Shown: one piece after another, positions 1 to 55,100 of the stretch
Layout of the letters: every line of letters begins with the position of its first letter
Numbering within the stretch: position 1 is the first letter of the stretch
Virus genome (UHGV): UHGV-1374526
Direction: 5' to 3' (one strand)
Origin: a virus
DNA length: 64,000 nt
Program-made: the position numbers and the translations under genes
Notes under the pieces: model-generated
Seen by the model: the letters and a program-made list of their open reading frames with translations, nothing else
Databases searched by the model: none
What the model was told of the DNA's origin: nothing

Positions 1-56
1 ACGGGTTCAACGGGTTCAACGGGTTCAACGGGTTCAACGGGTTCAACGGGTTCAAG
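1..56. repeat. Tandem 10-bp repeat (ACGGGTTCAA) x ~5.6 at the window start
   Basis: Direct reading: acgggttcaa repeated head-to-tail from position 1. It may continue upstream of the window. Confidence 0.9.
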
Positions 57-102
57 ATAGTTAAGGATTCATAACTATTAAGGATTCTTAAACATTCCCC
101 TG

Positions 103-303
103 TAAGTCCGGTCTAACTTTTAAGTCCAGCCTAACATTGTAAGTGCCGTCTAACTTTATAAGTCCAGCCTAACTTATTAAGTGCCGTCTAACTTTTAAGT
201 CTGGACTAACTTTTAAGTCTGGACTAACTTATTAAGTCTGGACTAACTTTTAAGTCCAGCCTAACATTGTAAGTGCCGTCTAACTTTATAAGTCCAGCCT
301 AAC
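103..303. repeat. Iteron-like array of ~11 tandem 18-19-bp units TAAGT-N5-CTAAC plus a 3-4-nt linker
   Basis: Constant flanks TAAGT and CTAAC surround a variable 5-nt core (CCGGT, CCAGC, GCCGT, CTGGA) in an ordered pattern. The units carry no spacers, so this is not CRISPR. Confidence 0.85.
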
Positions 304-310
304 AATCTTT

Positions 311-345
311 GAAGATAGATAGTCCGATATTTGACTATCTGACGG
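311..345. repeat. Left copy of a ~33-bp direct repeat (AGATAGATAGTCYRATATTTGACTATYWG); the right copy is at 581-616
   Basis: Near-identical copies flank the 346-580 segment that holds the triple 42-bp repeat. Confidence 0.8.
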
Positions 346-446
346 CAAATCCGCAAGGACGGGCCGCACGCCGATTGCACCGCTACAGGTGCGCAAGATA
401 TAGGGGCATGACAATTTGACATACAAGATATAGAGGTTTTACATTT

Positions 447-572
447 TTGTAAAAAGAGATATAATTTTATATCAATATTGCTATAATGTCTCAAAAAGAG
501 ATATAATTTTATATCAATATTGCTATAATGTCTCAAAAAGAGATATAATTTTATATCAATATTGCTATAATG
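447..572 (+). promoter_or_regulatory. Three perfect tandem 42-bp repeats, each with an extended -10 promoter (TGcTATAAT) and a 7-bp inverted repeat GATATAA-TTT-TTATATC
   Basis: TATAAT sits at 482-487, 524-529 and 566-571, each preceded by TGc. An AT-rich segment lies upstream and there is no good -35. The embedded hairpin has a 7-bp stem and 3-nt loop. Confidence 0.6.
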
Positions 573-580
573 TCTCAAAA

Positions 581-616
581 AGAGATAGATAGTCTAATAT
601 TTGACTATTAGTGAGG
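581..616. repeat. Right copy of the ~33-bp direct repeat
   Basis: Matches 311-345 at ~30 of 33 positions. Confidence 0.8.
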
Positions 617-1512
617 GAAAGATACTTATACCCGTATGGGTATGCTTCATAGGTTGCTGATACTTAATCAGTCCCAGACTGGACAATTTGAGGGCAAGAC
701 CCTGCCCCTTTTCTGCCTTCTCCAGCACCTTCAATTTCATTCCCTATCGGATTAGTAGGATTACCATTTGCCGATTTTGCATTATATGTATTATGCGAAG
801 TATGGAAGCGGATTGCTTAGAGTATCAATGAGTTACGCATATCAGGGTGTCAATGGGAAACAGACTTTGCACCCTCGGATTCCTAGGAGACCAAGGCACA
901 CCGTTTCCCTACAAGTCCCACATGCTCAAACGGTTGCAACAGATTCCGAGGATTCAATGGGTTGCATGCCGTACCGTTCCCGTGACAGGGGCAGGGGCAG
1001 TTCAGGGTAGGCAATGCACCATTCCCGTTGCAACACGGTGGCATGTCTTACCGATTCCGGTGCATGTGGGGGAGAGGCAGGCCCCTGAAACATACCGATT
1101 CCGGTGCAATCAGGGGCAAAAAGGTTCCGTGATGCACCGATTCCGTGGGCATAGGGGGAAACTGGATGCCAAGAAATACCAAGTACCACCACGGTTTCCC
1201 GGGCTCCGGGGTTGCACGCGGCCCATAGTAAATAGTTGGGTCAAATTTTTTCCGTGGGGTACGGGGGAGGGAGTACCCTTCTGGGCATGTCAAGCAAAAT
1301 CGACATGCGGCGGGTACATGGGTGGGTACATGGTCATGGCCGCTTCGCGGGGTGCGTGGGTTCCGGAGGTTCAACATGATGGTCATGACCTCTGGTCTGT
1401 TTCAGCCTCGTCTGGTCTGTGACCCATTCCCTCTATGTCAAGCAAAATCGACACGCGGCCATTCCACGGGGGACGTATCGACCTAGAAGGCGGGTATACC
1501 CTTCGGGCGGGC

Positions 1513-1575
1513 AGTTATAGCGGACCAGCGGTTGTGGCGCGTTCTAGGGTAGGACCCTCGATTAAATTCGGGCAA
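1513..1575. repeat. Copy 1 of a ~62-bp GC-rich repeat (agtt.tagcggacc...gcgcgttctagggtaggaccctcgatt.aattc)
   Basis: Near-identical to 1990-2052. A second pair (tgtcaagcaaaatcgacaYgcggc) lies at ~1289-1322 and 1437-1470. Confidence 0.8.
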
Positions 1576-1989
1576 ATTTACAAGAGTGTGACGGGGTATA
1601 GGTAGCGAGATGGTACATTAGTCATGAAACAGGAGATAGGGCACTACCATCGACCAAATTTGCGCACGGCGGGCATAATGCGACGGAGCGGCTCTCGCGG
1701 ATTTGGCGGCAAAGAAAAAGCCCGCAGGTAGCTTGACGAGACTACCCACGGGCGTAACTATGGAAAATGCCTGTAGAAAGGAGAGTGTTTAGTCCGCTCC
1801 TGTGGCGAGCAAGTTCCTTGCTTGGGATAGCCAGAAGCATTGGGCTTAGCTGGTTCGGTTGCCGTTCGGAGCGAACAGGTGCAACATACCACATCAGGGG
1901 AGAAAGTCAAGAGGAAATTGGTGTGATGGCGCGTTTACGAATTTAATCCAGTGTGGCGGGGTAGAAGGAGGGGATGGGGTCCGGGTGGA

Positions 1990-2052
1990 TAGTTGTAGCG
2001 GACCGCCCCGTGCGGCGCGTTCTAGGGTAGGACCCTCGATTGAATTCAGGGG
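1990..2052. repeat. Copy 2 of the ~62-bp GC-rich repeat
   Basis: Matches 1513-1575 with few substitutions. Confidence 0.8.
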
Positions 2053-2112
2053 ATTTGGGGATGGGGCGTACACACATGTGGGCGCGTGCGCACAAGAGGA
2101 CACACAAAGGTC

Positions 2113-2140
2113 TTGACATTGGTGTGAGGTTTGGTATAGT
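2113..2140 (+). promoter_or_regulatory. Sigma70-type promoter TTGACA-N16-TATAGT
   Basis: TTGACA at 2113-2118 and TATAGT at 2135-2140, with a 16-nt spacer. Confidence 0.55.
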
Positions 2141-2146
2141 TGCCGC

Positions 2147-2214
2147 AGTGTTCCGACTGGTGCATTGTGGTATGGCCCCGGGGTAGACTTGTTCTGCCTC
2201 CGGGGTTTTCTTTT
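2147..2214 (+). ncRNA. Putative ~70-nt small RNA: promoter at 2113-2140, intrinsic terminator at 2176-2214
   Basis: A predicted TSS ~2147 is followed ~30 nt later by a GC stem (ccccgggg / cctccgggg) and the U-run ttttctttt. No ORF lies between the signals. Confidence 0.35.
2176..2214 (+). terminator. Rho-independent terminator-like hairpin plus T-run
   Basis: An ~8-bp GC stem (2176-2183 pairs with 2198-2205) is followed by ttttctttt. Confidence 0.45.
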
Positions 2215-2381
2215 GGAGAAAGGACAAGGCCTCTCGCCCTGTCAAATTCGACACATCTCGTTCCAGCTCAATACACAATGACGCGGAAGAGAGCCGAGTT
2301 AGGACAGGAAGGACAGGAAGGACAAGAGGAAAGTACTCGCGTAAGAGGTTTACCCTCATCAGGTTAGAACGATTTTGACCG

Positions 2382-2488
2382 GAAAGGACGAAGGACAAAC
2401 TCTCTGCCCCATATATATATATATATAAACCCCTATATAATATATAATATAATATATAATATTTTTTTACTTGTCCTTTGTCCTTTTC
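2382..2488. promoter_or_regulatory. Large inverted repeat of GGACAA half-sites (gaaaggacgaaggacaaa ... ttgtcctttgtcctttt) flanking a (TA)n / AT-rich tract at 2411-2468
   Basis: Direct reading. Further GGACAA/GGACAG copies sit at 2298-2330. It is candidate origin or operator architecture. Confidence 0.6.
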
Positions 2489-2622
2489 AAAAAAAGGAAC
2501 CTCACCCATGTTGAAAATCAATGAGTTATGAAAGGACAACCACCTTGTCCTCGGAACCCCCGGAACCCACGTACTCCAAGGTCTCCAAAAGCACCTAACA
2601 TGCACAGCATAAGCGGATTATG

Positions 2623-2657
2623 AAAAGGACAAACCGCCCTCATCCTCTTGTCCTTTT
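2623..2657. promoter_or_regulatory. Operator-like inverted repeat AAAAGGACAA-N15-TTGTCCTTTT, with a related site AAAGGACAA-N5-TTGTCCT at 2531-2551
   Basis: Perfect 10-bp arms, with the same half-site as the 2382-2488 region. Confidence 0.6.
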
Positions 2658-2684
2658 CTCCAAGGCACAGAGTATCAACGGATT

Positions 2685-2708
2685 CCACGGATTCCGTGGG
2701 TTCCGTGG
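2685..2708. promoter_or_regulatory. Perfect 15-bp palindrome CCACGGATTCCGTGG followed by GTTCCGTGG
   Basis: An intergenic instance of the dispersed CCACGGAWTCC motif, sitting upstream of the first gene's promoter. Confidence 0.6.
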
Positions 2709-2825
2709 CACGGAGCACGGAAATCTCCCGGACAACCATGTCCCGGTACTTGTCCGGGGGTCCAGCCAAAACCGCAAAGCTCTCCATTCTTTCTGGGGAC
2801 CTACAAGAAGCTTGCAAATTTTTAC

Positions 2826-2854
2826 TTGACAATCCTTCGCCCCTGTCCTACTGT
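2826..2854 (+). promoter_or_regulatory. Sigma70-type promoter TTGACA-N17-TACTGT
   Basis: -35 at 2826-2831 and -10 at 2849-2854. The first ATG (2866) is ~5 nt beyond the predicted TSS. Confidence 0.5.
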
Positions 2855-2865
2855 GTGCTCGGCCC

Positions 2866-3849
2866 ATGTGGCGGCCATTATTATCACAAACCAAAACGAA
2901 CATGCAAATAAATTATACCAATGACATGCAGAAGAGAGGGGCATTCCACCTCTTCCTCCTGAACGAAGTCCTCTACAACATGGGAGAAAGTTATGCCAGC
3001 CCGAAGGTACTTGCTCCCGTCTACTTGCAGGAACTGCTCATTCATGGATTGCTTACTCCCACAAAGAAACACCCCGCGAAGCGGAGGACGTTGGGAGAGG
3101 TCTCCTATCAGCACCGGGCACTCTTTGAGCGATTGAACAGGGTGAAAGATACGGGCTACCTCAATCCAATAGCGGAGGACATTCCCTTCCATCGAGACAC
3201 CTTGTACGGTCCCATGACCTCGATGGAACAATTCGAAACCACCGACACGGTGACGAAAATAACTCCCGAACTGCCCGAATCCCTTAACGTCCTCATCTCG
3301 CTTGTGCTTCTCAACGGCGCACCTGTAACCGAGGAATACATCACACAGCGGGCGAAAGGACCGGAGGGTAATCTGGACTTCGACTTCCGCTGGTTCAGTG
3401 CCATGTTCCTCACGTCCTGCCCCTATGGCCGTGAGCCTCGCTACTGTCTCTCCCAAGTGGGCATGGACTTTGGCTGGAAGGTATATGACTATGTTCTTGA
3501 CCACTATGAGCATGTGCCTAATGCCAGCTATTGGAGAACGAAGTTGCCAGCTACGGAATTGGGGTCTCCTTTCACTCTCAACCCCAACCCGGCTCCGGGG
3601 TTCCAATATAAACACAGCTTCATTATCCTTAGTCTCCTTGGTGACTTTATGGATGTCTCGCGCATAACGAAGTCCGACCTTGTTCGCATCCTTCAGCTCC
3701 CCGGCGGTGAGCGTAGCGTAGAGAATGCGCTCTCCGAGCTGACGTCCGAAGGTTTTGCCGAGTATGATGAAGAGACGCGTACCTATGCTCTCACCCACCT
3801 CGGCGCAGTCATGTATGGCCTATACGCTACCCGCATCATGGAAATCTAA
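2866..3849 (+). CDS. Hypothetical early protein; a C-terminal DNA-binding-like region is possible
   Basis: A 327-aa ORF sits directly downstream of the promoter. The overlapping antisense ORF 2884-3798 was rejected from context. The start could also be the internal Met at 2902. Confidence 0.45.
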   Translation: MWRPLLSQTKTNMQINYTNDMQKRGAFHLFLLNEVLYNMGESYASPKVLAPVYLQELLIHGLLTPTKKHPAKRRTLGEVSYQHRALFERLNRVKDTGYLNPIAEDIPFHRDTLYGPMTSMEQFETTDTVTKITPELPESLNVLISLVLLNGAPVTEEYITQRAKGPEGNLDFDFRWFSAMFLTSCPYGREPRYCLSQVGMDFGWKVYDYVLDHYEHVPNASYWRTKLPATELGSPFTLNPNPAPGFQYKHSFIILSLLGDFMDVSRITKSDLVRILQLPGGERSVENALSELTSEGFAEYDEETRTYALTHLGAVMYGLYATRIMEI

Positions 3850-3862
3850 TCTCTTACCTCGA

Positions 3863-6733
3863 ATGACCACAGCACTACTCAACGATGAAACAGTTCAGAA
3901 ACTTGAACTGACCTTTACCGCACCCCGCATCTCCCAGTTGCAACTGGCCGAAGGTATGAAGAAGCTCCCCACCGGGGGTAGTTGCAACCGCGCCGTCGCC
4001 ATTGCCCTGCCGGAGGTCCTTCGCCTTCTCATGGACATGCCGATTGAGAATCGGGAACTGATGCAGTATTACTATCAGGTACAACTCTTTAAGGTGATGC
4101 AGGGAAAGCTGGACGAGAACTCGCTCTCCATGCCTCCCGTATATAAGACCATCCTCTCCAACTGGCGCAAGCATGGGCTGGAAGCTAAGGATATTAAGCC
4201 CGCGCTTCCTGCCCTCGTTCCTTCTGTCCAGTTCCTAAGCAAGCCCGGATTGTATGACTACGCCCTCGACAGCAAGGGTGCAAGGTACTATACCAACCGT
4301 AGCCTCGTCAGCGTGGATGGCACGTCGTGGCGGCATACGGGTATCTTCGGAATTGACGTGGACCTCAAGGAGAACAAGAAACATACCGCGGAAACCCTTC
4401 TCGCTACAGCGCAGGAGAAACTCCCCCAGCTGGATGGCTTCCTCTTCGCGTATGTCAGCCCCAATCAGGGGATTAAGGCGTTCTTCCAAATCTCCAACTC
4501 TACGCTCCAATACCTGAACCAGAACCCGCAGGTGGTGGAGGATGAGGGAAATGAAGAACTGGACGTGAAGCGATTGGCAAATGAACGCATCTATCTCCAC
4601 AAAGCAGTATATCATTCCCTCGCGCAGTACATCCACGAGGGAACCGGATTTGTTCTCGACATGGCCTGTACTGACCCTGCGCGGATGCAGTTCTTCTATC
4701 TGGACACCTTCATCCCCGGAACCCCCGGAACCCCTCGATTCCATGTCCCCGACATGGAGAAGGCGAAAGCGGACTACCTTCAATACGACAAGAACCGGGC
4801 GGTCAGTTACGAACTCCCGTCCGTGGCTCCCGGTGCGCCTCGCCCCAAGATATTCGAGGACTTCATTGCGTGGTTGAAGGTGAACGAGTATTACGATACC
4901 GCCGAAGGCCTCTCCCGCATGGACTATATTAAGGGGGACGGTTGCCTCTATGGCGAGTGCCCACAGTGCAAGGGAGGCAAGTCGGGCAATAGTCAGAACA
5001 CGGACCTTCGCTTCTACCCCAATCCCCAGTACCCCCGGCAGTCCTACTTCCACTGCTTCCATGCCAGTTGCAATGGCGCGAACCCGGAGATTACGTCGGT
5101 GCAATGGCTCTTCGACATGTACTTGACGGAGTTGGAGGGGGAAGCCGAGAAGAAGGCAGGGGTTGAGCCGTGGTGTCAGGACCCTCTCCTGATGAAGTGC
5201 TTCATGCAGGGAATTGCTCCGGTAAATACGAACACCCCTCTCCCGGAGGTCAGCGCGTTGAAGCTCTGCTCTCTCAAGTTCCCCTATGTCCGAAAGAACA
5301 AGGCGGGCAAGAGCATCCCCATCCTGACGGACGAGAACATCAAGTATCTTCTCCATCATGGCCTAAATCTCCGTGCCTTCCGTCGAATGAACACGAACGA
5401 ACTCCTGCTCTTGGACTTTAAGAACAGTAGGTGGTACGAGACGAGCAATACTATATTGAGCAAGATTTCAAGCTTCTGGCAGTTGATAGTTCCCGGTCAG
5501 GCGATTCCTATTCAACGCCTTCGCGAAGCCTTGTCGAGTATTGCACAGGCCAATTACTACCACCCGCTGGCTACGTTCGTCAGCTCCCGTCCTTGGGATG
5601 GGCAGGACCGTTTGCGTGCGTTCTTGGACTACCTCCCCATGAATCAGGATGTAGACATGCCCGAAGGCTGGACCCCGGACAAGTATCGGGACATGGTGCT
5701 TACGACATGGCTCATCACCCTGTGGAAGCGCGTGACCCGCCGTCTCTGCTTCCTCACCCATGTGGAATCCCAGACCAGCTTCCCGCAGAACTACATCCCC
5801 ATGCTCACTGGTGCACAGGGGCTGGGTAAAACGAAAGCCACGGACTGGTTGTTCCGTGGGGTCCGTAATGACGTGGCTAGCTCCATCGAAGGATTGAATA
5901 GTGCGGATAGCGTTGTCCAGATGGCCCGGCACTCTGCCATCATCTTGGACGAGATTGATGAAGAAGTCGCTAACAAGGCGAAGGAGAGTAAGTTGAAGCG
6001 AATCATTACCGGGGAATCTGAAAGTTGCCGTGTTGCTTTCTCCCAGTCTCCGGGAACCTATGAGTACTGCGCAAGTATCATTGGGAGTACGAACCAAGAA
6101 GAGGTATTGAGAGATACCACAGGTACTCGCCGTTACTATCCGGTAATCCTAGGTCCACGTACCATGTCGGAGGAAGAAATCCCTGCCGGGTTTAGTGCCA
6201 ATAGCTGGGCGGTGGAGAAGCTCTTTAAGCTGGACAACCAGCAACTCTGGGCACAGATTAAATACATGGTAGACGCCCATGAAGATGGCGAATACCGTTG
6301 GGCTAATCTGGAAAAAGTCGGTGCATTCCTCGCAGAACAGTATGCCAGTTGCCGAGGCAATGATACTGACCTGACGAAGTACCTCGTCCCCGTGGCTCTC
6401 AAGGATATGGACACGAAGGGAGAGAGGCTCTCCAAGAAGATACCGGGCGACTTTGGCACTATGCACAATATCCTCGCCTATGTCCGTAAGAACTTCGGAG
6501 ACATGGAGAAGGTGGAGAACTGGGCAGACGCTAACTTCAAACGAGACCTCATTGCGGCCTACGGTTCCGATTCCTTGGTCCGCCACAATGTCAAACGCAC
6601 CGAGGACCCGAGGCAAATGAAACGCTACTTCTTCATGCCGATTGACATTTGGATGAAGGAAGCAAGCGCAGAAACGAAGGCGCGGGTATATTCGCAATAT
6701 GAACACATTAAGGCACTTGCGGAAACCCTGTAA
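3863..6733 (+). CDS. Primase-helicase fusion (AEP/PrimPol-type primase, zinc-binding region, SF3/D5-like helicase)
   Basis: N-terminal GIFGIDVDLK (AEP DxD motif) and Cys/His cluster CPQCKGG...HCFHASC. C-terminal Walker A LTGAQGLGKTKA and Walker B AIILDEIDE. The start was moved to the in-frame ATG at 3863 to avoid overlapping the upstream gene. Confidence 0.75.
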   Translation: MTTALLNDETVQKLELTFTAPRISQLQLAEGMKKLPTGGSCNRAVAIALPEVLRLLMDMPIENRELMQYYYQVQLFKVMQGKLDENSLSMPPVYKTILSNWRKHGLEAKDIKPALPALVPSVQFLSKPGLYDYALDSKGARYYTNRSLVSVDGTSWRHTGIFGIDVDLKENKKHTAETLLATAQEKLPQLDGFLFAYVSPNQGIKAFFQISNSTLQYLNQNPQVVEDEGNEELDVKRLANERIYLHKAVYHSLAQYIHEGTGFVLDMACTDPARMQFFYLDTFIPGTPGTPRFHVPDMEKAKADYLQYDKNRAVSYELPSVAPGAPRPKIFEDFIAWLKVNEYYDTAEGLSRMDYIKGDGCLYGECPQCKGGKSGNSQNTDLRFYPNPQYPRQSYFHCFHASCNGANPEITSVQWLFDMYLTELEGEAEKKAGVEPWCQDPLLMKCFMQGIAPVNTNTPLPEVSALKLCSLKFPYVRKNKAGKSIPILTDENIKYLLHHGLNLRAFRRMNTNELLLLDFKNSRWYETSNTILSKISSFWQLIVPGQAIPIQRLREALSSIAQANYYHPLATFVSSRPWDGQDRLRAFLDYLPMNQDVDMPEGWTPDKYRDMVLTTWLITLWKRVTRRLCFLTHVESQTSFPQNYIPMLTGAQGLGKTKATDWLFRGVRNDVASSIEGLNSADSVVQMARHSAIILDEIDEEVANKAKESKLKRIITGESESCRVAFSQSPGTYEYCASIIGSTNQEEVLRDTTGTRRYYPVILGPRTMSEEEIPAGFSANSWAVEKLFKLDNQQLWAQIKYMVDAHEDGEYRWANLEKVGAFLAEQYASCRGNDTDLTKYLVPVALKDMDTKGERLSKKIPGDFGTMHNILAYVRKNFGDMEKVENWADANFKRDLIAAYGSDSLVRHNVKRTEDPRQMKRYFFMPIDIWMKEASAETKARVYSQYEHIKALAETL

Positions 6734-6752: not shown

Positions 6753-6780
6753 TTGACAAAAATCTAATCTTTGATACATT
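6753..6780 (+). promoter_or_regulatory. Sigma70-type promoter TTGACA-N16-TACATT
   Basis: It sits in the 6734-6856 intergenic gap. Confidence 0.5.
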
Positions 6781-6856
6781 GGCCTCGTCACCGGGATTCC
6801 GGGGCGGGGCCAATCCCGTTCCGCTAATCCCCTCGAATACAACTAAGCAAACAAGC

Positions 6857-7246
6857 ATGACTACGACAACCGACGACAACATGATTACCGAGTTGAAAGC
6901 TCTTGAATCCGAGCTTCGCTCACAGGTGGAAAAAGCCGAAGCGGAATTGAAGTCCCTTCGCAATAATCACAACCGCATTGTCAAGCTAATCAATCTCCTT
7001 GATGGTCTTGGCAACTTGATGAAGAATACGCACGTTACCACGGTTGCGGATTCCCCTCGCCCCGGCTATAGCAAGAATGGCAAGAAGCTGGGCCGCCCGT
7101 CCAATGAACGTCTCGCCAACTTGAAGGCGCAGAACCAGAACCTCCGCGAACGGTATGAACTTAGCCAGAAGCGTGACCAGCTGAACAAGTGCATTGATAG
7201 CCTCGACTGGATTATCGACTTGCAGGAAGAAGAAGGTGAATACTAA
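6857..7246 (+). CDS. Hypothetical coiled-coil protein
   Basis: ORF in the rightward gene train. Its first in-frame ATG lies downstream of the promoter (the ORF-track start at 6779 is TTG). The sequence is heptad-like (ELKALESELRSQVEKAEAELKSL). Confidence 0.4.
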   Translation: MTTTTDDNMITELKALESELRSQVEKAEAELKSLRNNHNRIVKLINLLDGLGNLMKNTHVTTVADSPRPGYSKNGKKLGRPSNERLANLKAQNQNLRERYELSQKRDQLNKCIDSLDWIIDLQEEEGEY

Positions 7247-7591: not shown

Positions 7592-7848
7592 AAGACCTAG
7601 CAGAATTATCCCCCTACATGGGCATCTATTACCTCTCCCTATTTATGGGCCTTCTGGTCAATGGTATGCCCCTACTGGCCTCCCTCATCTTCTCGCTCAT
7701 TCTCGTCCTCATCGTTCTGTGGGTGTGGTCCTTCATCTACATCACCCTCACGCATCTGTTGAAACGGAGTAACCGGGACATGAACGTCAATATCTTTGGC
7801 CTCTCCGCGACATTGGTCACTCTCTTCTTCATAATTATATCACACTAA
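7588..7848 (+). CDS. Small membrane protein
   Basis: Its start overlaps the previous stop (ATGA). It has two long hydrophobic helices. Confidence 0.4.
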   Translation: MKDLAELSPYMGIYYLSLFMGLLVNGMPLLASLIFSLILVLIVLWVWSFIYITLTHLLKRSNRDMNVNIFGLSATLVTLFFIIISH

Positions 7849-7851
7849 ACT

Positions 7852-8235
7852 ATGTACAACGAAATTGCAATCGCCGCCCAAACTGTTGATTCCCACTTCT
7901 CCTATATGGGATTAGAGGAATCAGCCGCTGACCTCCTGCGCCATCTTCTGTGGGAGATTGAAGAATACCGGGAAGCTGACGCGGAGGACCGCGTAAAGGA
8001 GGCAACCGACATCGCCATTCTCGCATTGCGCCTAGTAGCCGCTACGGGGCGCGATGAAGGTTTCTCCTTTGAGGATGGGATATTCCTCGCAAACGAAAAA
8101 TGCCGGGAAGTCGTGAACCGCATGAACCGTGCCGTGAAGATGTACAAGAAGGACAGAACCGCCGGAATTCCTATGAGCACCCCACAAGAATACTACGCGC
8201 AAGCGAAGGAACAACTAAATACACCCAAACACTAA
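7852..8235 (+). CDS. MazG-like nucleotide pyrophosphohydrolase
   Basis: An EExxE...E..D-type acidic helix pair (LLWEIEEYREADAEDRVKEATDIAILALRL) typical of the MazG/HisE fold. It is a common auxiliary gene in phage replication modules. Confidence 0.45.
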   Translation: MYNEIAIAAQTVDSHFSYMGLEESAADLLRHLLWEIEEYREADAEDRVKEATDIAILALRLVAATGRDEGFSFEDGIFLANEKCREVVNRMNRAVKMYKKDRTAGIPMSTPQEYYAQAKEQLNTPKH

Positions 8236-46102: not shown

Positions 46103-49100
46103 ATGGCTATTGACTTTAGTACCGCCAATATGTCCGACTTCACTCCGAAGTCGGGAAGCAGTATTGCACGTGAACAGCGAGCCGCAGAAAGGCACGCCGC
46201 GTGGCAAGAGACGCAAGCGCAGAAACAGCAGGACCGAGAACAGAAAGCACTGGACCGCGAGCAAAGGTTAGCGGAAAAGAAACAGACCCGTGCCGAGAAG
46301 GGAGCGACGGCGACCGCAGACTATGACACCTTCCTCTTTAAGTCTGTTGATGACTTTGCGGAGAAACAGAAAAAGGATGCGGAACACGCAAATAATGTAG
46401 AATGGCAAAATAAATCCCGCGCCCATACGGAACAAGAATGGAAAACCGCCGAGGAAAATAAAGCCCTCGACATCTTGAACAAAGGAAACCGTGGGTACAG
46501 CTTTGAGGGAATCGACTACATGAAAGACTATGTAGACCGCGGGGAAGATGCGCTGGTCGATTTGAAGGCCGCTTCCCGCGGTGATAGCGAGGCCATTAAG
46601 AAGCTTGCCAACAATACGGGACTTACCGTTGTGTCTTCTTCCGAGCTTACGCCTACGCACCCCACCTTCTTATCCCGCTCTGGCTTCGGAAGTGGAGAGG
46701 ACGGGAACCCCGTCGTAACGGAAAAGTTCCTCGCCATTGCCGCGGACAGAAACCGTAACGCAAAGGCGGTTGCCAAAGGCATTGCCAACACAATGGAAAA
46801 GGCCCGGAAGGATTACCTCAACTCGAATCTAGATGTTGGAACGGGTAAACCTACGGCGCAAGCCATCGAGACCGCACCTATTGCTTACACCGCAGAAGAA
46901 ATAGAAAGCGTCATCAATACGATTAGGCGCGAAGACATTGGCAACTATCGTGCCGCTAAGGCTCTTTACGACAAACACCGCTCTTCTTCGACGGAAGGCG
47001 TGCAGAAGAAAACCCCCAGCCAAACGAGCGTGGGGGAGCTTGGCGTTGGCGAATTCTCTGATTCAGCACCTTCATTTACTGGGAATGTTTTTGCTGAACT
47101 CGCCAACCTTTCCAAGTCTCCCAGCAAAATGTTCCAGCTTGTCCGCGACTACGGGGATTACCTTTCCCGGAGTACGGAAGATATTGAATCCCCGGAATCT
47201 GCTACAGCGGATGCGAAACAACTCCATACAGACCAAGCAAAACTCATTTCAAAAAAAGAAAAACCTGTTGAGGATAGGATTCGTGAACAGATAGAAACAG
47301 CCGACAAAATCGTAAGACGCCTCGAAGAGGACTACACTGGCCTTCCCTATCTCGAACTTCGCGACGCGCTTCTCAATCCAGAGGCCGCGGCCTCTGCCCT
47401 TCTGTCTTTAGTCCCCGGTGCTGACATGGACGCAATACGTGCACGGGCAAAGGTCATTACCGAGGAAGTTCGCCGCCAGAAGGACCGCCCTCTGACCGTC
47501 GAAAACCCCGAACAGATTGGCATGAGTGAGGCTATACTGGAAGCCGTGGCCACAAGGTTTCCGGGGGTTCCAAAATCTGCCCTGCGCCAAGCGGGAGTAA
47601 CCAAACTGATTCAGGACTATACCGCCAAAGCCACGCCGAAAGGCACTCTCATGGATGCAGTCAAAGGCGCACTGGCTAACTACCGAAGCACGGCGGGACA
47701 AATTGCGGACGTACTTACCTTCCAACCGGATAATAGTGTGGGTAAGTACGCCGACCCAATGAGCTTGATGGAATGGAGGAAGGGAACGAGGCGTGGCTCA
47801 TGGTGGTATGGCATGCCGGGCGGCCCGTCCTTTGAAGTCGGACCGGAGAGGTTGAAGGAATACATGGCCCAGTACCATATTGAAAGTACTCGCGATGCCC
47901 TCAACTCCCTCTCCCATGCCGCACGTATGGGTGACTTGGGCGTTGGCCGTGGCAGTCTCTTTGCGTACAATCCGCACACCAAGGAAGTTGATACGAACGC
48001 CACGCTCGAACTGAATCCCAATGCTCTCTACAATGATAAGCTGATGGACCAGAGCATTGAGGCTCTCCGTGCTAGTGGCGCGGACGAGAAGCTTATCAAT
48101 CGCACCATTGAGAAGTTCCAGAACCTCCGCAAGAAATCCGCACAGGAACTTGTGAAGGACAACATGGCATTGGACGAGACGCTGGGGACGCTTCGCGATA
48201 CGTGGCTTGGCTCCGGCTTGCAGTTCAACCCTGTCTTGACTGAATCCATGAAGCATCTGGACAAGTACCTTTCCTTCAAGAATTTCTACAACGAACAGAA
48301 GGAAGCGGGCAAGAGCGACGAGGACATCCTCTCCGCATGGCAGGAGAAAGGGCAAGCCACCTTCGATTCTGTTCTCCGTGGGTTACAGATAGGTACACAC
48401 AAGGCAATCGACCTTGGGACAAGTACCGCCTATGGTGCTCTTCTCTTTGCACAGAATGCAGTTGGCAGTCGTGCGGCGATGGAACATACCCGCACCCTCT
48501 GGGACCAGCTGAACAAAAAACAGGAAGCAGAAGCCGAGTTGGTTCGAGGCAATATCCTTGCGGACTATACTGCGGAAATCGCTAACCTCGGCTACCAAAT
48601 GGTAGCAACCGCGGGGGCTGGTAAAGTTGGTGGCCTCGCTGGCCGTGCACTGACACGTACCGCGCTCAATAAATTCATGAAGGCAACGGCTAACGTCGTA
48701 GCGAAGCGGGCCGAAGCTCTTGTCCCTGCCGCCCGTCCGGGATTGGCGGGACGTTTGAGTGGAACTATTCAGCGCAACCTCGACAACCTTGCGGCGTTGA
48801 ACCTCGAACGGGCAGGAGCCGGAGCCGGGGTAAATCTTAGCATCATCTCGCAGGTTGCACCGAATGCTTACTCCGACATCTTCTATACCATTTATGATAG
48901 GGAGATGGAAGGGAAGGAACCGACTGCCGAGAACACGAACAGGGCACAGAGCATTGCCAACATGCGTGCTCTCTTTGGTGCGGCTCTCGTATCTACTGGT
49001 AGTACTCTCATCAACAACCGCGCAGGTATGGATTCCTTCATGCGTAAGATTGTTGGGGCTAAAAACCTTCGCGGTCAATCTCCATTCCAAACTCTTGAAC

Positions 49101-52100
49101 GGAAGATGGCCGGATGGAGAAGCAAGCCATTTAAGGAGATGAACACGAAGGAAAAGACGTTTGCCGTTGCTTCCTATCTGTACAGCCAGAGCAAGGCCGT
49201 AGTGGAAGGAGCCACCGAAGAACTGGCAGACGAATTCCAAGAGTGGGCGTTTACCGAACTGGTGAAGAACGGAGAAATCTCCGAATCCTCTATTGCCACT
49301 ACTGACCAAGTGATTAGCACAGGCATGAAGATTGCTTTCCTCGGAGGTATCGGCGGCTACGTTGGTAGCCACTTAGCTGGTGAAGGGAACATACGTTTCC
49401 AAACCGAAGCCGCTCCCACTCTCGATGTAAAGGATGCTACTTCCATGCTACCGGATATTACGAAAGATGCGAGCAACATCATCGAGGAAACGGGCAAAGC
49501 CATTACCAAAAACAATGTGCCGGAAAGCTTGGTAGAAACCGGAAAGAAGGTTATCGAGATTGCCGGGGAGAAGGGAGATGCCGCGGAAGTTGCCCGCGAA
49601 TGGGTGGACAAATCCATTGCCCATGAAAGTCTGGCAGTCTCCGATGAAACCCGCAAGGCGTGGGTGGAAGGAGCAACCCGTATGGGCATCAGCAACTTCA
49701 CCCAGTTCCGCAACCTAGTGGAACGGGCCTCCGAAATATATACCTATGAGGGCAGTGCCGCGGCAAGCTCATTCATGGCAGAAGCCATTAACGACCTGCC
49801 CAATACCCTGTCATTCCCAAATAAGGAAAACCTCGACACCATGCGCACCATGCTTTCGGAGGCCCTTGATGCTATGGGAGACCGGGTTCAGGTTATCGAA
49901 GTAGACGACGACCTGTCCATCATTACTACAGGGGACGAGGACCTTGATGCCGCCATTAACGTTATTAACGGATTGACGGAAGCCGCGGCTACCACGGAAC
50001 CCAAGGAATCCCCGGCTACCGCGGAACCCACGGAATCCCCGGTAGCTATTGCCCGGAAGGAGAGGGACAATGCTATTGCCCCCATCACTGCTATGGTAGA
50101 GACGGGAGTAGTTACCCCAGAAGCTACCGCTTCCGTGGATAACATGGATGCGGCAATCACCTCGTTCGACCCCAACACCGGGGCATGGCTCTCATCCGGT
50201 TCACCTCTGGACCGCGGCGCGAAGCTCGTCTCCCTGAACGAGATGACCGGGATTAACGCCCCCATGATTACCAGCAACACGGGAGAAACCGTTGTCATCG
50301 CTCCGCACGCAAGCATGTACAACACAGGTGAGGGAGGGACACCCAGCACCAAGTGGGGGGACAAGGTCTCCGCTCTCAATCTCCCGACGGATGGGACTGG
50401 CGCAAATGCCTACGGCACGCTTCGCGGCCTTCAAGTTAATGCCTCCCCCGCACAGGCCGCGGCCATTGATGGAGTGCTCCGCGCACTGCATGCCGCTGGT
50501 TTGGACGTCGCTATCCGTGCAACCAATGCCCCGGCGAACATCTCTTCCCCTGCCAGTATCACCTACATGAACGGCACGGACGGGAAGCTTGTCGGCGGTG
50601 TCATTGACCTGTACGTGAACCGGGATAACCCGATTGAAAGCGTAACGGGAACGGTACTACACGAAGTCATCCACCTCATTGACCGTCATCTTCGTACCAC
50701 CAACACGGACTATTCCCAGCGGATGGATAGGATTAGAAGCGCGATTGCAGAGAACTACAACAACATTGTCGATAGTCTCTCCGCTATGTATGACGCTAGC
50801 GTGGACATCAATGAGATGAACGCCATCGCCGCGCTCGCTTCCGACCTCAACTACGGTCTCCGCGGTGCGGACGAATTTGCCAGTGTCGCGTTCTCCAATC
50901 CTGTCATGAACTTCATGGTAGCGGAAGCTAGCGGAGACAATATCACCATCACGGATTTGGCTCGCTATGCCGAAGCGGCGGGAGGCCGGAAGCCCGTGCA
51001 CGTGCGCCTCGTCGAATGGCTTAAAGATTTGATTAGGGACATCAAAGATACTGCGGACGATATGGACGGAACCACCGCCGCAGAACGCGTGGCTGAATGG
51101 GATTCCTATGTGGCCCGCGTCGCGGACATGACCCCCGGCAAGTGGTTCGATATGCCTCGCACTCCGTCATGGAAAGTAGATGATACGGATTATACTATGG
51201 GCAACGGGGTAGATTATTTTAACCCGATGGCCTATGAGACCGACATGACCCGGAGATTGTCCTTCGGCCTTGGCGCAGAAATCATTGGCACGAAGGCCGG
51301 GAACTGGGTAACTAGTATTAAGAACGTATGGCAAGGCGTGTCTAAGGGCTTGGACAAAGCAGGCATCAATGTTAAGTCCGAGGAACAGAAGCTGGTTGTG
51401 CTGGAACAAATGGCCAATGTTAATGCGGCGTATGAACGCAGTATTAAACGCATTGACAAAATTGGTGATATGCTTCAACGCCGTGCGGATAATCTGGGCT
51501 GGGATGCCGCTACGCGAAAGAAATGGAGCAAGTCCATTCTTGACATGTCGGGGAATATGGACAACGATATTGACCCTGAAACTGTTGCACGCATTAACGC
51601 AGAGGCTCAAGCAGAAGTTCGTCAGCATGAACAGACCCGCGACTTCCGTATCGCGTTGGCTAAGAAGACTGTCACCGATGCCGTCAATAGGCACGCGGAA
51701 GCGGTGCGTCTGGCTAACTCCCTTGCGCTTAATAGTGAAGGGCGATTGGAAATCAACGACATGATGCGCCGGATTAAAGACATGAGCGGCAAGGGATATG
51801 GAGCCATGCTGGACAAGCAGGTAGCTCTCCCCATGCTCTCCCAGCAGATTCACAAATCTCTCTCCGACCTTGGCTCTCGTATCTCCGCGACGGGGGATGC
51901 CAATCTGGATATCACCTACTTTGGCCTTGCCCGCGACACGCAAAACTATCTCGCGGATATGATTAACGAAGTGGATAGTCCCTTCTCTATGGATGAACTT
52001 CTGGACAGGTGGTCCAACCTTCGCAATGACTTCCTCTATGCGGAGAGTACAAACCATCCCGTCATCGCTCCTATGATTCAGGACATCGCTAAGGCACGGG

Positions 52101-55100
52101 CCGAAGCTAAACAAATCATCCGGGAAGCCAATGATGATTTCCACGCCGCAACAAAGAGGGCAGGTGTAACTCGCGCTGGCGTAGCTACCCCTGCTGGTTC
52201 CGTGTGGCTGAAACGAGACAACGCTATCCTCAATGCTCGCCGTCAAAAACAAGCGGAGTATATGGCTAAGCGGGATGCCGCTGAACAGTGGCTTCTGTCA
52301 CAAGGAGTTGTAGGCCAACTGGTCCACAATGTCATCGCCGATTCCCGTAAAGAAATTGCCGCAACGCAAATCTCTATTGCCAAGCTCATTGGAGATAGCC
52401 GTATGGCTGACAACGCCGCGGAGATGAATTATCTTCATCGCACCTACATGGCCGTTGGACGCCATGCCGGAGACTTCACCCGGACGATGAAGGACATCAT
52501 CGCAAACCCCAACGGAGAACTGGCGCAGAAATACGATGGTCTGACGAAACTGTTGCAGGAAGCCGCAATCTCTCATGCCGAAGCGCACCAGAGAGAACTA
52601 TCCGAAAACGTAAGCCAAGTGCTGGACAACATGCAGGCATTGGCCGCGCTCCACGACGAGTTGAAACTTCCGCTGGTGTCAGCTCCCACGGGAGCCTCTT
52701 CGAATTATAAACTCCTGTTCGAAGGTGTAGCCAAGAACTACAGGACCAGAGAAATTCTTGACTTCATTCAGAACAACTTCGGTCAGGTTCAAATGCTTGC
52801 GGACTTGAGGGACGGCCACAACATCAGTGCCATATATAATAAGGCCATGAGCATGATAGCACAGGCAGACTATCGCACGAAGTCAAAGATGACAGAGAGG
52901 AAGGAAACTCTGGACATGAATGCCAGAGATAGTTTCCTCGCTGATGTCTTCTCCAGCCTTCCGGGAAAAACGATTGCGGACAAAATCGGCAGTCTTCAAT
53001 CCCCGGCATCCGTGGCTTCCGAAGTGAACAAGGCCATCCCCACTATCCCGACTTCGGCCATTGACCAGATATGGAACACGCCTAATATGAATGCCGCAGA
53101 ACGACTGGACAAGACGCTCAATCTTCTTCGCGGTCAGGCTGGCGTTCTCATGAGGATGAACGGCATGGGCAACGTCATCTCCGCTACCGACTTGAAAGCG
53201 TTGCAATATCCGGAACTCTCCCGTCTTGCGGTGAACGATGCCATGAAGGCCATTGACGAAGTACTGTCCAAGAAGAGGACGAATGAAGATGCGCTGGCCC
53301 AGCGGAAACGCTTGCCCGAATGGCAGAGGAAAGCTATGTATGAACTTAGCGACCTCACCATTGGGGATGCCATTGGGACGTTACAGAATACCCTATCCAT
53401 GCAGTCGAAGATTGCCGTGAACCAGTTGCTTGCTGACGAGTATACCTCCGTACTGAAAGCGCAGGGTGTGGTCGTACCCCCGAATTCCACGAACCGTACT
53501 TCGGACATGGTGGAAATCTCCTTGAAGAATACGAAGAATGCGTTGAACGGAATGTACGCCGACAAGGATGTAGCCGATGCCATCTACCGCATCTACAGGC
53601 CGAGCGACGACATCCTGAATAGCAGGACGGACGACTATAAGGAGGTCCGCGAGTACTGGCAGAAGTCCGGCAAGGGGCAAGGATGGTGGAGTAAGGCGGG
53701 TGGCTTGGCTAACCTTTCTGTCTTAATAGCGAGTCCTAATTCCACGTTACGTAACTTATATGGTACAGTAGCTCAAATGACCCATGCGGGTGCACTTCCA
53801 TTCACGGGGAGTAAAGAAATCGCAAAGCTTATCGGAGATTGGAGCCAGATGTATAAACTGCGGAAGTTGTCCCGCGGTAAAGACCTTGCTTCACAGGCTT
53901 CCGCGGATAGACTGCTGGCCGCGGAAGACAGGTACAACGAGAAGATTCGCTACTGGCAAGAGCTTGGTCTGCTGGACGCAGGTCAAGGGGAGTTCCTGCG
54001 CAACGTCTGGAAGTCTGACGAGTTCAGTAAGATGGCAGGAGAATTTGAAGAAGTGAATGAGGATTCCTTCTTCAAACTGGCCGAAGCTCTGAACGAGAAA
54101 CAGGAACGGACGAAGGGCGAGGTGGCTAAGGATGTCGCCAAGACGGCGGGCAAAGTCGTAGCATGGCCCATCAAAACGATGTCCTTCGCCTATGGCTTGC
54201 CGGACGCGGCGGCCAAGATTGCTCTCTTCACTAACCAGAGAGCGATTGCCGATACCCAATTAAAGGTACAACTGGCACGGGCGAAAGGCAAGGCCAACCC
54301 CAATGCACGGGACCAGATACTCCTTGACGCGAGCCAGACTACCCAGAGTTGGGATGCTTATGTGGACAGGTATACTGCCAACATGGTGAAGAGCTTGCTC
54401 CCCACGGGTTCGCGTACTCCTTCGTGGGTGAAAACCCTGAATATAGTTGCGGCTCCGTTCTTCATGTTCCAGTACCATACCTTCCAGTCTGTAGCCTACA
54501 ACCTTGGCCACGCCATAGGTGAAGGGGTAGACGGTGTGTGGGCTATCAATAACGGCATGAAGAAGGAGGGGGCTTACCTCTTGGGACGCGCTATCCTTCG
54601 CATCGCTGGTTCCGCAGTAACTATTGGTGCAACCTCTGCGGTCTCTTCCTGGGTTGCCCGACAGATTATCGCCAGTGTCTTGGGAGATGACGATGACCAT
54701 AAAATCATTGACGACGCGGAAGTCATGAGGAAGCTGGCAGATAGTGGGCTAATTCCTGACTATGATAAGTTCGGGGACTTGATTGGCATCATAGATATGA
54801 AGCGACATGAGTTCGAGTATTTGACCCTTGAATACATGAACCCGTTCAAGACCATCAGGGTGTTAGCCAAACCCCTGCCCAGCCTCTTCATGGATATGGA
54901 TGTGGACAAGTGGGGGATGAACAAGGTTGCCGAACTGAAAAACCTGCTGGAAAATACGGTGCTTGAAGAATCCCTCCTTCTGAACACAGCTACTGAATTG
55001 TTTAATGAGGAAGACTTCAATTACAAGCATAGCCTCTCCGGTGATGAAAGCGTCAACGTTCTCCCGGCAGTCGGCAACGCAATCCTGTTGGCCGCAGGGC

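Follow-up and report, generated by a model that had tools for sequence, protein, structure and literature searches.

A conserved non-coding block in an uncultured gut phage family carries a probable minus-strand small RNA gene among DNA repeat elements

Results

Genomic setting and relatives of the block

Positions 620-2110 of the 64,000-nt stretch analyzed here (the window), which comes from virus genome UHGV-1374526, form a block of about 1.5 kb that an earlier sequence-only reading had described as GC-rich, rich in repeats and free of credible open reading frames (ORFs), and in which we identify a predicted small RNA (sRNA) gene on the minus strand together with several families of repeated DNA elements. 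The window encodes a family-A DNA polymerase, a primase-helicase, a helicase, an exonuclease, a resolvase, a large terminase, an endolysin and an NAD-dependent ligase, and is most of a ~70-kb human-gut phage genome. Its first credible ORF starts at 2866, which leaves positions 1-2865 (~2.9 kb) ORF-free, and the primase-helicase gene starts at 3755. Searches by blastn and tblastn of 50,697 deposited phage records gave no DNA match to positions 1-3000, no match to the ORF at 2866-3849 and only remote matches to the window primase.

Many relatives of ~69-71 kb are present in IMG/VR and ENA assemblies, from human-gut samples where labeled. The window-type set comprises 47 non-redundant sequences including the window, 84-97% identical over 590 to ~2087; the sequence-only reading had proposed a search for homologous regions in related phages, and these ~46 relatives share the block. 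A distant set of six sequences represents three lineages (L012/L071/L043, L019/L069 and L034) whose primase protein is ~64% identical to that of the window. In L012, the equivalent region is 2.8 kb long and lies between leftward and rightward gene blocks. The family anchor, used as a prophage or host probe, gave no matches.

Only 1 of the 37 large ORFs of the window has a Shine-Dalgarno-like (SD-like) GGAG, GAGG or AGGA within 20 nt upstream, and the ORF leaders are A-rich. Promoters of the Bacteroidetes type (TAnnTTTG) are not enriched, with 14 per strand against 10.7 expected. The clearest promoters of the non-coding region are sigma-70-like, despite the SD-poor, A-rich leaders of the ORFs. 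ARAGORN found no tRNA or tmRNA.

The block is conserved and non-coding

The GC content of the block had been thought visibly higher than that of the rest of the window. At 0.537, it compares with 0.515 ± 0.026 elsewhere, and 18% of equal-sized windows are as high or higher; the apparent richness is a contrast with AT-rich flanks (0.359 upstream and 0.475 downstream). The true anomaly is strand asymmetry, a GC skew of +0.151 (z = 3.5) that exceeds every other equal-sized window. On the plus strand, runs of three or more G number 42 against 15.4 ± 4.2 elsewhere and runs of four or more number 18 against 3.9 ± 2.3 (about fourfold), with C runs at normal frequency. Despite the abundant G-runs, the block contains no canonical G-quadruplex motif.

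The block is conserved and does not encode protein. The ORFs that can be listed in it overlap on both strands and none is kept across relatives, which bears out the earlier view that none is credible; in the window-type set the open frames shift between genomes. Their products are compositionally aberrant, as had been stated, with P, G, R, H and C over-represented and K, E, D and N scarce; W, previously named among the enriched residues, is not enriched. There is no synonymous excess (the synonymous fraction is 0.19-0.24 in all six frames) and no codon periodicity (variable columns split 127/120/124 by phase), and the block carries 1-2-nt indels among relatives. The primase gene, taken from the same contigs as a positive control, shows 3-4 times more change at third codon positions. 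We found no coding frame under purifying selection across relatives, the observation that the sequence-only reading had named as telling against a non-coding block.

Conservation is patchy at a scale of 20-50 nt. Patches of ~100% identity, among them 785-805, 1225-1265, 1545-1565 and 1725-1765, alternate with patches of 70-75%, which include 885-925 and 1005-1025; the fast segments evolve at about the third-codon-position rate and are interleaved with near-invariant ones. Taken whole, the block and the primase gene differ between genomes to about the same extent, and conservation of the block stops abruptly near 2085. Its divergence does not track that of the primase: the sub-block 1445-1710 holds at 97-99% identity even in genomes with an 86%-identical primase. 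Recombinant junctions can also be seen, in L016 at a 29-nt anchor and in L046 and L026 as deletions between short shared motifs. Based on the untracked primase divergence and these junctions, the region is a mosaic of exchangeable modules. A 57-nt insertion (1325-1381) is present in only ~21% of relatives and is therefore dispensable. L046 lacks the equivalent of 1312-1745, so that B box 1 (described below) is fused to the sRNA just past its seed, and L026 lacks 1329-1503. In L073 (coverage 2×), unrelated AT-rich DNA interrupts the block at ~1841, possibly as an assembly chimera.

A predicted minus-strand sRNA gene

The predicted sRNA is ~166 nt long, runs from 1876 to 1711 on the minus strand, and would have a multi-helix domain at its 5' end, then a CU-rich single-stranded region and a terminator. 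Its putative promoter (1910-1883, minus strand), identified by consensus match, is of the sigma-70 type, with TTGACT, a 16-nt spacer and TGgTATGTT (an extended -10), and is invariant in 44 relatives except for the 'n' of TGn. The predicted intrinsic terminator (1753-1720, minus strand) is a 13-bp hairpin followed by UUUUUCUUUG at 1719-1710; in simple scans this hairpin, with its 13 bp and then TTTTTCTTTG, is the strongest terminator-like site of the region. The terminator has a calculated energy of -22.8 to -24.0 kcal/mol as minus-strand RNA. When the same DNA is read as the plus strand the value is -17.6 against -24.0 kcal/mol for the minus strand; the minus-strand form is stabler because three of its pairs are G·U, and these G·U pairs therefore favor the minus strand as the RNA strand.

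The putative seed, 5'-CUCUCCUUUCUAC-3' (1773-1785, minus strand), has a core, UCCUUUCUA, that does not vary among the four lineages, although its flanks diverge, and that is predicted to be unpaired: folding gave an unpaired probability of 0.67-0.82 for the seed versus 0.42-0.50 overall. The predicted fold comprises a 9-bp closing helix, three inner hairpins, a ~40-nt open stretch with CUCUCCUUUCUAC, and the terminator. Folding of the window sRNA gave z = -3.7 relative to mononucleotide shuffles, and single-sequence z-scores overall ranged from -2.1 to -4.9. Among 44 contigs there are 18 distinct variants, with no indels and with standard pairs in 99.1% of pair cells. One hairpin switches from GCAAGgaaCUUGC to GCGGGgaaUCCGC in 14 of the 44 contigs, a change that converts two A-U pairs to G-C and one G-C pair to G·U, and nearly all other variable columns fall in loops or junctions. 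A covariance model of the window-type sRNA detects a single copy in the 64-kb window (220 bits) and a weak match to the seed and terminator of L019 (E ~0.009). No Rfam family matches the sRNA.

Little of the sequence here can be aligned with the three distant lineages. The same order of elements is found on the minus strand of L019 and L034, namely TTGACA, a 17-18-nt spacer, TGaTAnnTT, ~95 nt of helices, UCCUUUCUA, and a strong hairpin with a U-tract; the helices between promoter and seed are unrelated in sequence to those of the window. In L012, the arrangement, including a hairpin and then a U-tract, rests on sequence reading and the fold, the promoter-like TTGACA-17-TGaTAAGGT having been read by eye below the scan threshold and the scan having flagged only the inner part of the terminator. 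By reading, a helix at the equivalent place is CCAG/CUGG in the window, CCAC/GUGG in L012 and CCGC/GCG(a)G in L019.

We consider with good confidence that the minus-strand sRNA gene predicted from these features is real. The sequence-only reading had proposed structured non-coding RNA(s) transcribed from a triple promoter upstream. Its view of the block as non-coding, functional and RNA-encoding stands, with the RNA now a probable one, while the strand, the promoter and the scale have changed: the RNA that finds support is a ~166-nt minus-strand sRNA with a promoter and a terminator of its own, and not a product of the triple promoter. We also considered whether the sRNA gene lies in an invertible promoter segment (inverton). 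An inverted repeat of 11-17 bp flanks it (1554-1570 and 1938-1954), but the 45 contigs with the gene all have it in one orientation (45/45), and this candidate was rejected.

Repeats and boxes inside the block

An array of RTTCC(G/C) sites, each usually followed by a G-tract, extends over 875-1470 on the plus strand. There are nine RTTCC[GC] sites against 1.0 expected, and none in the reverse orientation. The array includes three 42-44-bp units (1050-1075, 1094-1119 and 1136-1161); the three ACCGATTCCG copies reported earlier are present at 1050, 1094 and 1136, the middle one ~6 nt from where it had been placed. Spacings of the first eight sites are mostly near 33, 44 and 64 nt, with 16 and 26 nt also seen. 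The RTTCCG motif resembles the tandem 9-mers with which the window opens (1-57), as well as the forms that these take in relatives, and we tentatively read 875-1470 as an array of sites for a DNA-binding protein. At the window start itself, six tandem ACGGGTTCA 9-mers (1-57) are followed by an array of ~19-nt TAAGTCYRGNCTAAC repeats (103-303); the 9-mers at the same place in relatives differ (GGGGGTTCC, GGTTTCCAC and GTGGGTTCC), and repeat number and type vary.

Two copies of a further element, the B box, (A)TGTCAAGCAAAATCGACATGCGGC, with imperfectly palindromic half-sites TGTCAAG and ATCGACA, lie on the plus strand at 1287-1311 and 1435-1459. Their exact 18-mer core, TGTCAAGCAAAATCGACA, occurs only at these two places (1287 and 1435) in 64 kb. 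They fall within the pair of ~30-bp repeats noted previously, which is real and measures 36 nt (1287-1322 and 1435-1470, 83% identical). The distant lineages carry 3-5 B-box copies. A degenerate third B box (1907-1930) contains the -35 element of the putative sRNA promoter, and in L019 and L034 one B-box copy supplies the TTGACA -35 of that promoter. The arrangement suggests that the B boxes are operators, and since the third overlaps the sRNA -35, the same binding protein probably controls the sRNA too. The possibility that B boxes are themselves sigma-70 promoters on either strand was rejected: neither copy 1 nor copy 2 has a suitably spaced -10, and only the degenerate third coincides with a promoter.

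An 89-nt direct repeat (plus strand; copy 1 at 1484-1572, copy 2 at 1962-2050) flanks the sRNA gene, with 79% identity between copies and a spacing of 478 nt. This is the pair previously given as ~62 bp long; it is real but longer than was thought, and the earlier coordinates were 1 nt out of register. The copies share an identical 27-nt core (1537-1563 and 2015-2041), with zero such matches expected by chance, and this core was not found in L012. Copy 1 lies inside the most conserved sub-block (1445-1710), begins TAGAAGG and contains the hairpin AGGGT-AGG-ACCCT; it is deleted in L046 and partly deleted in L026. The repeats gave no fold signal in a consensus-fold scan.

Three candidate identities for the 89-nt repeats were tried and rejected. 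As paralogs of the sRNA, or of a plus-strand RNA gene of the distant lineages described below, they show no significant local alignment (z < 3) and no covariance-model match. The core as a mimic of a CRISPR repeat, searched as a 26-nt degenerate pattern, gave 0 exact matches in 185,579 species-representative genomes, a search that a diverged mimic could escape. Promoters of the N4 hairpin type were considered because AGGGT-AGG-ACCCT is present in both repeats, but the 3231-aa ORF of the window shows no similarity to any RNA polymerase in PHROG, Pfam or PDB. A T→C change in about half of relatives breaks the stem of this hairpin in copy 2, and the hairpin is absent from L012; L019 and L034 were not searched for it. 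The 3231-aa ORF (46103-55798, plus strand, ~15% of the window) matches no sequence in Pfam, PHROG or PDB; it is of a size reminiscent of virion-packaged giants such as the N4 or crAss-like virion RNA polymerases, an identity for which we found no support.

In the left part of the block, a palindromic hairpin, TATACCC-GTAT-GGGTATG (627-644, -8.3 kcal/mol), has an invariant stem and a hypervariable loop of 4-5 nt, and the same stem is present in the distant L012. A small hairpin had been reported at 637-652; it exists, at 627-644. A terminator-like hairpin, GGGCA-AGACCC-TGCCC followed by CUUUUCU (692-715, plus strand), lies in a segment that is 97-98% conserved. The most conserved stretch of the family, TTTTGCATTATATGTATTATGCGAAGTATGGAAG (775-808), contains an imperfect palindrome, GCATTATA-TG-TATTATGC. 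Its 29-nt core, GCATTATATGTATTATGCGAAGTATGGAA (780-808), is identical in every lineage save for a single T→C in one, even at 64% primase identity; in L016 this core marks a junction, with sequence of the distant type to its left and of the window type to its right.

No support for one large structured RNA

The sequence-only reading had advised an Rfam scan. Covariance models run over positions 1-4000 of the window gave no match at E≤1, with GOLLD, ROOL, HEARO and tRNA/tmRNA among the models, and an Rfam scan of L019 returned only chance-level matches. RNAalifold, applied to eight sub-blocks on both strands and compared with column-shuffled controls, gave z from -2.5 to +1.0, which is not significant, and over 1430-2110 the covariation term was only -0.76 kcal/mol. 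When the whole block was searched for covarying stacked pairs, the only clean compensatory ones were 1811/1819 and 1812/1818, in the sRNA hairpin; tolerating G·U intermediates in this search yields many false positives. A single large structured RNA spanning the block finds no support.

Elements flanking the block

Upstream of the block, three exact 42-bp tandem copies (451-587, plus strand) with TGcTATAAT and GATATAAT elements form the promoter-like triple cassette to which the sequence-only reading had pointed, and which does exist. It is lineage-specific: only 4 of ~47 family sequences have it, in 1-3 copies, whereas all of them share the conserved block. Upstream of 620 the sequence varies as a mosaic of cassettes. 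The promoter cluster is bracketed by a near-palindrome, TAGTC-N-AATATT-N-GACTA (313-338 and 583-608), that looks like an operator; L012 has in its place a perfect 14-bp palindrome, GTCAAATATTTGAC, present twice.

Just downstream of the block, a predicted promoter, TTGACA-16-TGgTATAGT (2113-2140, plus strand), precedes a strong putative terminator (2175-2206, plus strand, -22.9 kcal/mol) followed by the U-tract UUUCUUUUGG. Together they would yield a plus-strand transcript of ~65 nt (2147-2213), and the terminator stem shows compensatory changes. The distant lineages have a plus-strand RNA gene of ~185 nt that is not in the window (L019 ~2609-2823, L034 ~1957-2165, L012 ~7660-7875), with a TTGACAGAA...TGtTATAAA promoter, a 13-bp terminator, a consensus fold of -73 kcal/mol and a 9-bp closing helix; it matches no Rfam family and no tRNA. 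Both the terminator at 2175-2206 and the 3' module of the sRNA (UUCCAUAGUUAC and hairpin) resemble the 3' end of this gene, and the resemblance indicates that RNA-gene modules have been shuffled within the region during evolution of the family.

Further downstream, a (TA)n-rich tract (2408-2468), the AT-rich tract nearest to the repeat array at a distance of ~900 bp, is followed by oppositely oriented clusters of GGTTCC-type 9-mers (2548-2566 and 2678-2704), with a comparable layout in L012 and L019. This layout (2408-2704), outside the block, is a candidate unwinding element or origin. The ORF at 2866-3849 (plus strand, 327 aa) has no PHROG match and is present in only some relatives (L002 and L008); other relatives have unrelated sequence in its place, with the adjoining primase gene still conserved.

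Discussion

A probable composite control region

We think it probable that the block is composite, an sRNA gene on the minus strand with a remainder that works as DNA, within a phage control region. The block would be the core of a non-coding control region of ~2.9 kb, a mosaic of separate elements and neither one RNA nor a decayed gene. Acting as DNA would be the one-orientation array of RTTCCG sites and G-tracts, the two B boxes with their degenerate third, and the two 89-bp direct repeats; the probable role of repeats and boxes is to gather DNA-binding proteins, of the phage or the host, that act in replication, packaging or transcription control. Candidate binding proteins of the phage include a 155-aa regulator-like ORF (6779-7246), the product of the ORF at 2866-3849 and the small terminase.

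Several observations weigh against this reading. The promoter, the transcript ends and the transcript of the sRNA are predictions, its compensatory cells are all due to a single haplotype in one helix, and the window-type lineage shows little diversity. The 5' domain of the sRNA is not alignable with the distant lineages. No complement of the seed (≤2 mismatches) occurs in the 64-kb window besides the opposite strand of the gene itself, and 36 of the 37 large phage ORFs are without an SD sequence. The most conserved sub-block, 1445-1710, in which no element is explained, is absent from L046, a near-complete genome. RTTCCG cores are no more conserved than their spacers (0.915 versus 0.902, p = 0.32), and the binding-site-array reading is tentative for this reason. 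The G-rich, C-poor plus strand and the plus-strand terminator at 2175-2206 fit a long plus-strand transcript as well.

That the block functions purely as DNA, as an iteron origin, a pac/cos-type packaging site or a partition-like site in which the sRNA-like signals are incidental, we judge unlikely. Such a site would account for unidirectional site arrays with most spacings near 33, 44 and 64 nt, for their relation to the tandem 9-mers at the window start, for the palindromic boxes, for the AT-rich tract and inverted GGTTCC clusters at 2408-2704 with the primase-helicase gene following at 3755, and for recombinant junctions at conserved motifs. It would not account for a promoter-seed-terminator order that distant lineages retain although the sequence in between has been replaced, for a terminator made stronger on the minus strand by G·U pairs, or for the compensatory changes in the sRNA hairpin. 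In addition, there is no DnaA box (≤1 mismatch) in 1-2900, and the site cores are not more conserved than the spacers. The repeat arrays may nonetheless hold origin or recombination sites, as had also been suggested earlier.

A single non-coding RNA of ~1.6 kb, running rightward from the upstream promoters to 2175-2206 and serving as a structured RNA, a scaffold or a sponge, is distinctly improbable. Promoter-like sites lie upstream, a strong plus-strand terminator lies just beyond the end of conservation, and a few one-sided changes keep G·U pairs on the plus strand. That strand is also G-rich and C-poor, and untranslated RNA of this composition would be a poor substrate for Rho. Yet no Rfam model matches at E≤1 in positions 1-4000, consensus folds of the plus strand give z of -1.8 to +1.0 relative to column-shuffled controls, and compensatory pairs are absent outside the sRNA hairpin. 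Most relatives lack the triple cassette, and what lies upstream of 620 is a variable mosaic; otherwise intact contigs have internal deletions of 175-430 nt; and a convergent minus-strand gene would lie mid-block.

It is very improbable that the block encodes one or more small proteins, from an ORF behind the SD-like TAGAAAGGAG(G) or from ORFs that begin at a B-box ATG ('MSSKID...'). In L012, AAAGGAGGTGCTCATG is followed by a 61-codon ORF with its ATG 6 nt past TAGAAAGGAG(G), and both B boxes of the window begin ATGTCAAGCAAAATCGAC. Against this, 2-nt indels separate L019 from L034 in the conserved stretch, the would-be start reads GTG-TGA in L019, and in the window type the hairpin haplotype alters four consecutive codons non-conservatively but keeps the base pairing; on these three grounds TAGAAAGGAG was rejected as the real ribosome-binding site of a small ORF. 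The B-box ATG is TTG, ACG or TAG in relatives, with 1-3-nt indels after it, no frame shows synonymous excess, and SD sequences are missing from 36 of the 37 large phage ORFs. That the block is a gene in decay, or functionless foreign DNA of recent arrival, is scarcely credible, for although the strand composition is atypical and ORFs are lacking, the block is syntenic in ~46 relatives and partly in lineages with 64% primase identity, segments evolving at about the third-codon-position rate alternate with near-invariant ones, and GC is not atypical; the earlier notion of a horizontally acquired remnant fails likewise on the shared position in ~46 relatives, the patchy constraint, and the key elements kept in lineages with 64% primase identity.

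Possible targets of the sRNA

In the composite reading, the sRNA would pair through its seed with purine-rich, SD-like sequences of the UAGAAAGGA type, either in host mRNAs or in plus-strand transcripts of the same region, whose 89-nt repeats begin TAGAAGG. Seed pairing may then block translation or alter RNA stability, as CU-rich-seed sRNAs do elsewhere. The perfect complement of the seed, UAGAAAGGAG, resembles a strong SD sequence. Because the phage ORFs are SD-less, an SD-directed seed would need host mRNAs or non-SD targets. The plus-strand starts of both 89-nt repeats, TAGAAGG(A/C)GGG, are a one-base-bulged complement of the seed. Given these repeat starts, the SD-less ORFs and the absence of another target in the window, the targets are likely to be host mRNAs or plus-strand RNAs of the same region.

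In L012, the seed reads CACCUCCUUUCUA, and the core UCCUUUCUA is kept in all lineages. CACCUCCUUUCUA presumably matches the 3'-terminal 12 nt of 16S rRNA, with its anti-SD sequence. We speculated that the conserved seed is a mimic of the 16S rRNA 3' tail, a phage-made 'free anti-SD', an idea that we regard as a long shot. If it is correct, the free anti-SD could selectively silence SD-dependent host mRNAs and spare the SD-less phage messages. Alternatively, it could titrate a factor that recognizes the 16S rRNA 3' end.

The coding density of phages is usually above 90%, and an ORF-free region of 2.9 kb that is kept throughout a family of abundant, uncultured phages of the human gut is therefore a concentrated store of regulatory information. 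The analysis resolves it into testable units: an sRNA gene with an invariant seed, operator-like boxes, one of them over the sRNA promoter, and oriented repeat arrays. If confirmed, the sRNA would be a new family among the few sRNAs from virulent or uncultured gut phages, and its seed would be a handle for finding the host and the targeted pathway.

Comparison with known systems

Our literature search found analogs and nothing on this phage group. The first analogs are base-pairing sRNAs with CU-rich seeds that cover ribosome-binding sites, to which RsaE of Staphylococcus aureus belongs. In LhrC of Listeria, CU-rich sites, one of them in a single-stranded stretch, pair over the Shine-Dalgarno sequence (PMC4132741). 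SprX, an sRNA of an S. aureus phage island, is reportedly of the CU-rich-seed class (PMC4005690). The phage sRNA, as predicted from its sequence, is like those of the LhrC type a short independent RNA with a Rho-independent terminator and no ORF, and like LhrC itself it would hold its C/U-rich motif single-stranded between a stem-loop domain and the terminator. It differs in having no sequence or Rfam relationship to them, in a seed core, UCCUUUCUA, that matches the last bases of 16S rRNA and not a UCCC motif, and in that the genes of the phage itself lack SD sequences (36 of the 37 large ORFs).

Regulatory or antisense RNAs encoded in early or immunity regions are familiar from other phages, among them OOP of lambda, Sar of P22, C4 of P1/P7 and DicF of a prophage. 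Phage-encoded regulatory RNAs are also the subject of a review (PMC12197685). The predicted gene resembles these RNAs as a small RNA gene in a phage regulatory region that runs against the neighboring early genes and has a promoter of host type and an intrinsic terminator. Whereas those RNAs have identified phage genes as overlapping partners or targets, here no ORF lies within 1 kb and the only complementary phage sequence in the window is the opposite strand of the gene itself.

Long ORF-free, conserved phage DNA is also characteristic of GOLLD, ROOL and HEARO/OMEGA. Unlike these, the block has no Rfam match, no excess stability and no covarying multi-helix architecture, and it has natural internal deletions. 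Repeat-rich non-coding ends are known in T7 (the left end with promoters A1-A3), T5 (the first-step-transfer end) and lambda (the R-sites of cosB). The region studied here is likewise non-coding DNA, beside tandem short repeats like those at some phage genome ends, with clustered host-type promoters; its arrays of short sites are of a type that terminase or other DNA-binding proteins bind. It differs from these ends in having no sequence similarity to them, in its length of 2.9 kb, which exceeds the T7 or lambda equivalents, and in containing predicted RNA genes. A composite control region with a predicted sRNA gene absent from Rfam is an ordinary kind of phage feature, found here in an uncharacterized, uncultured gut family.

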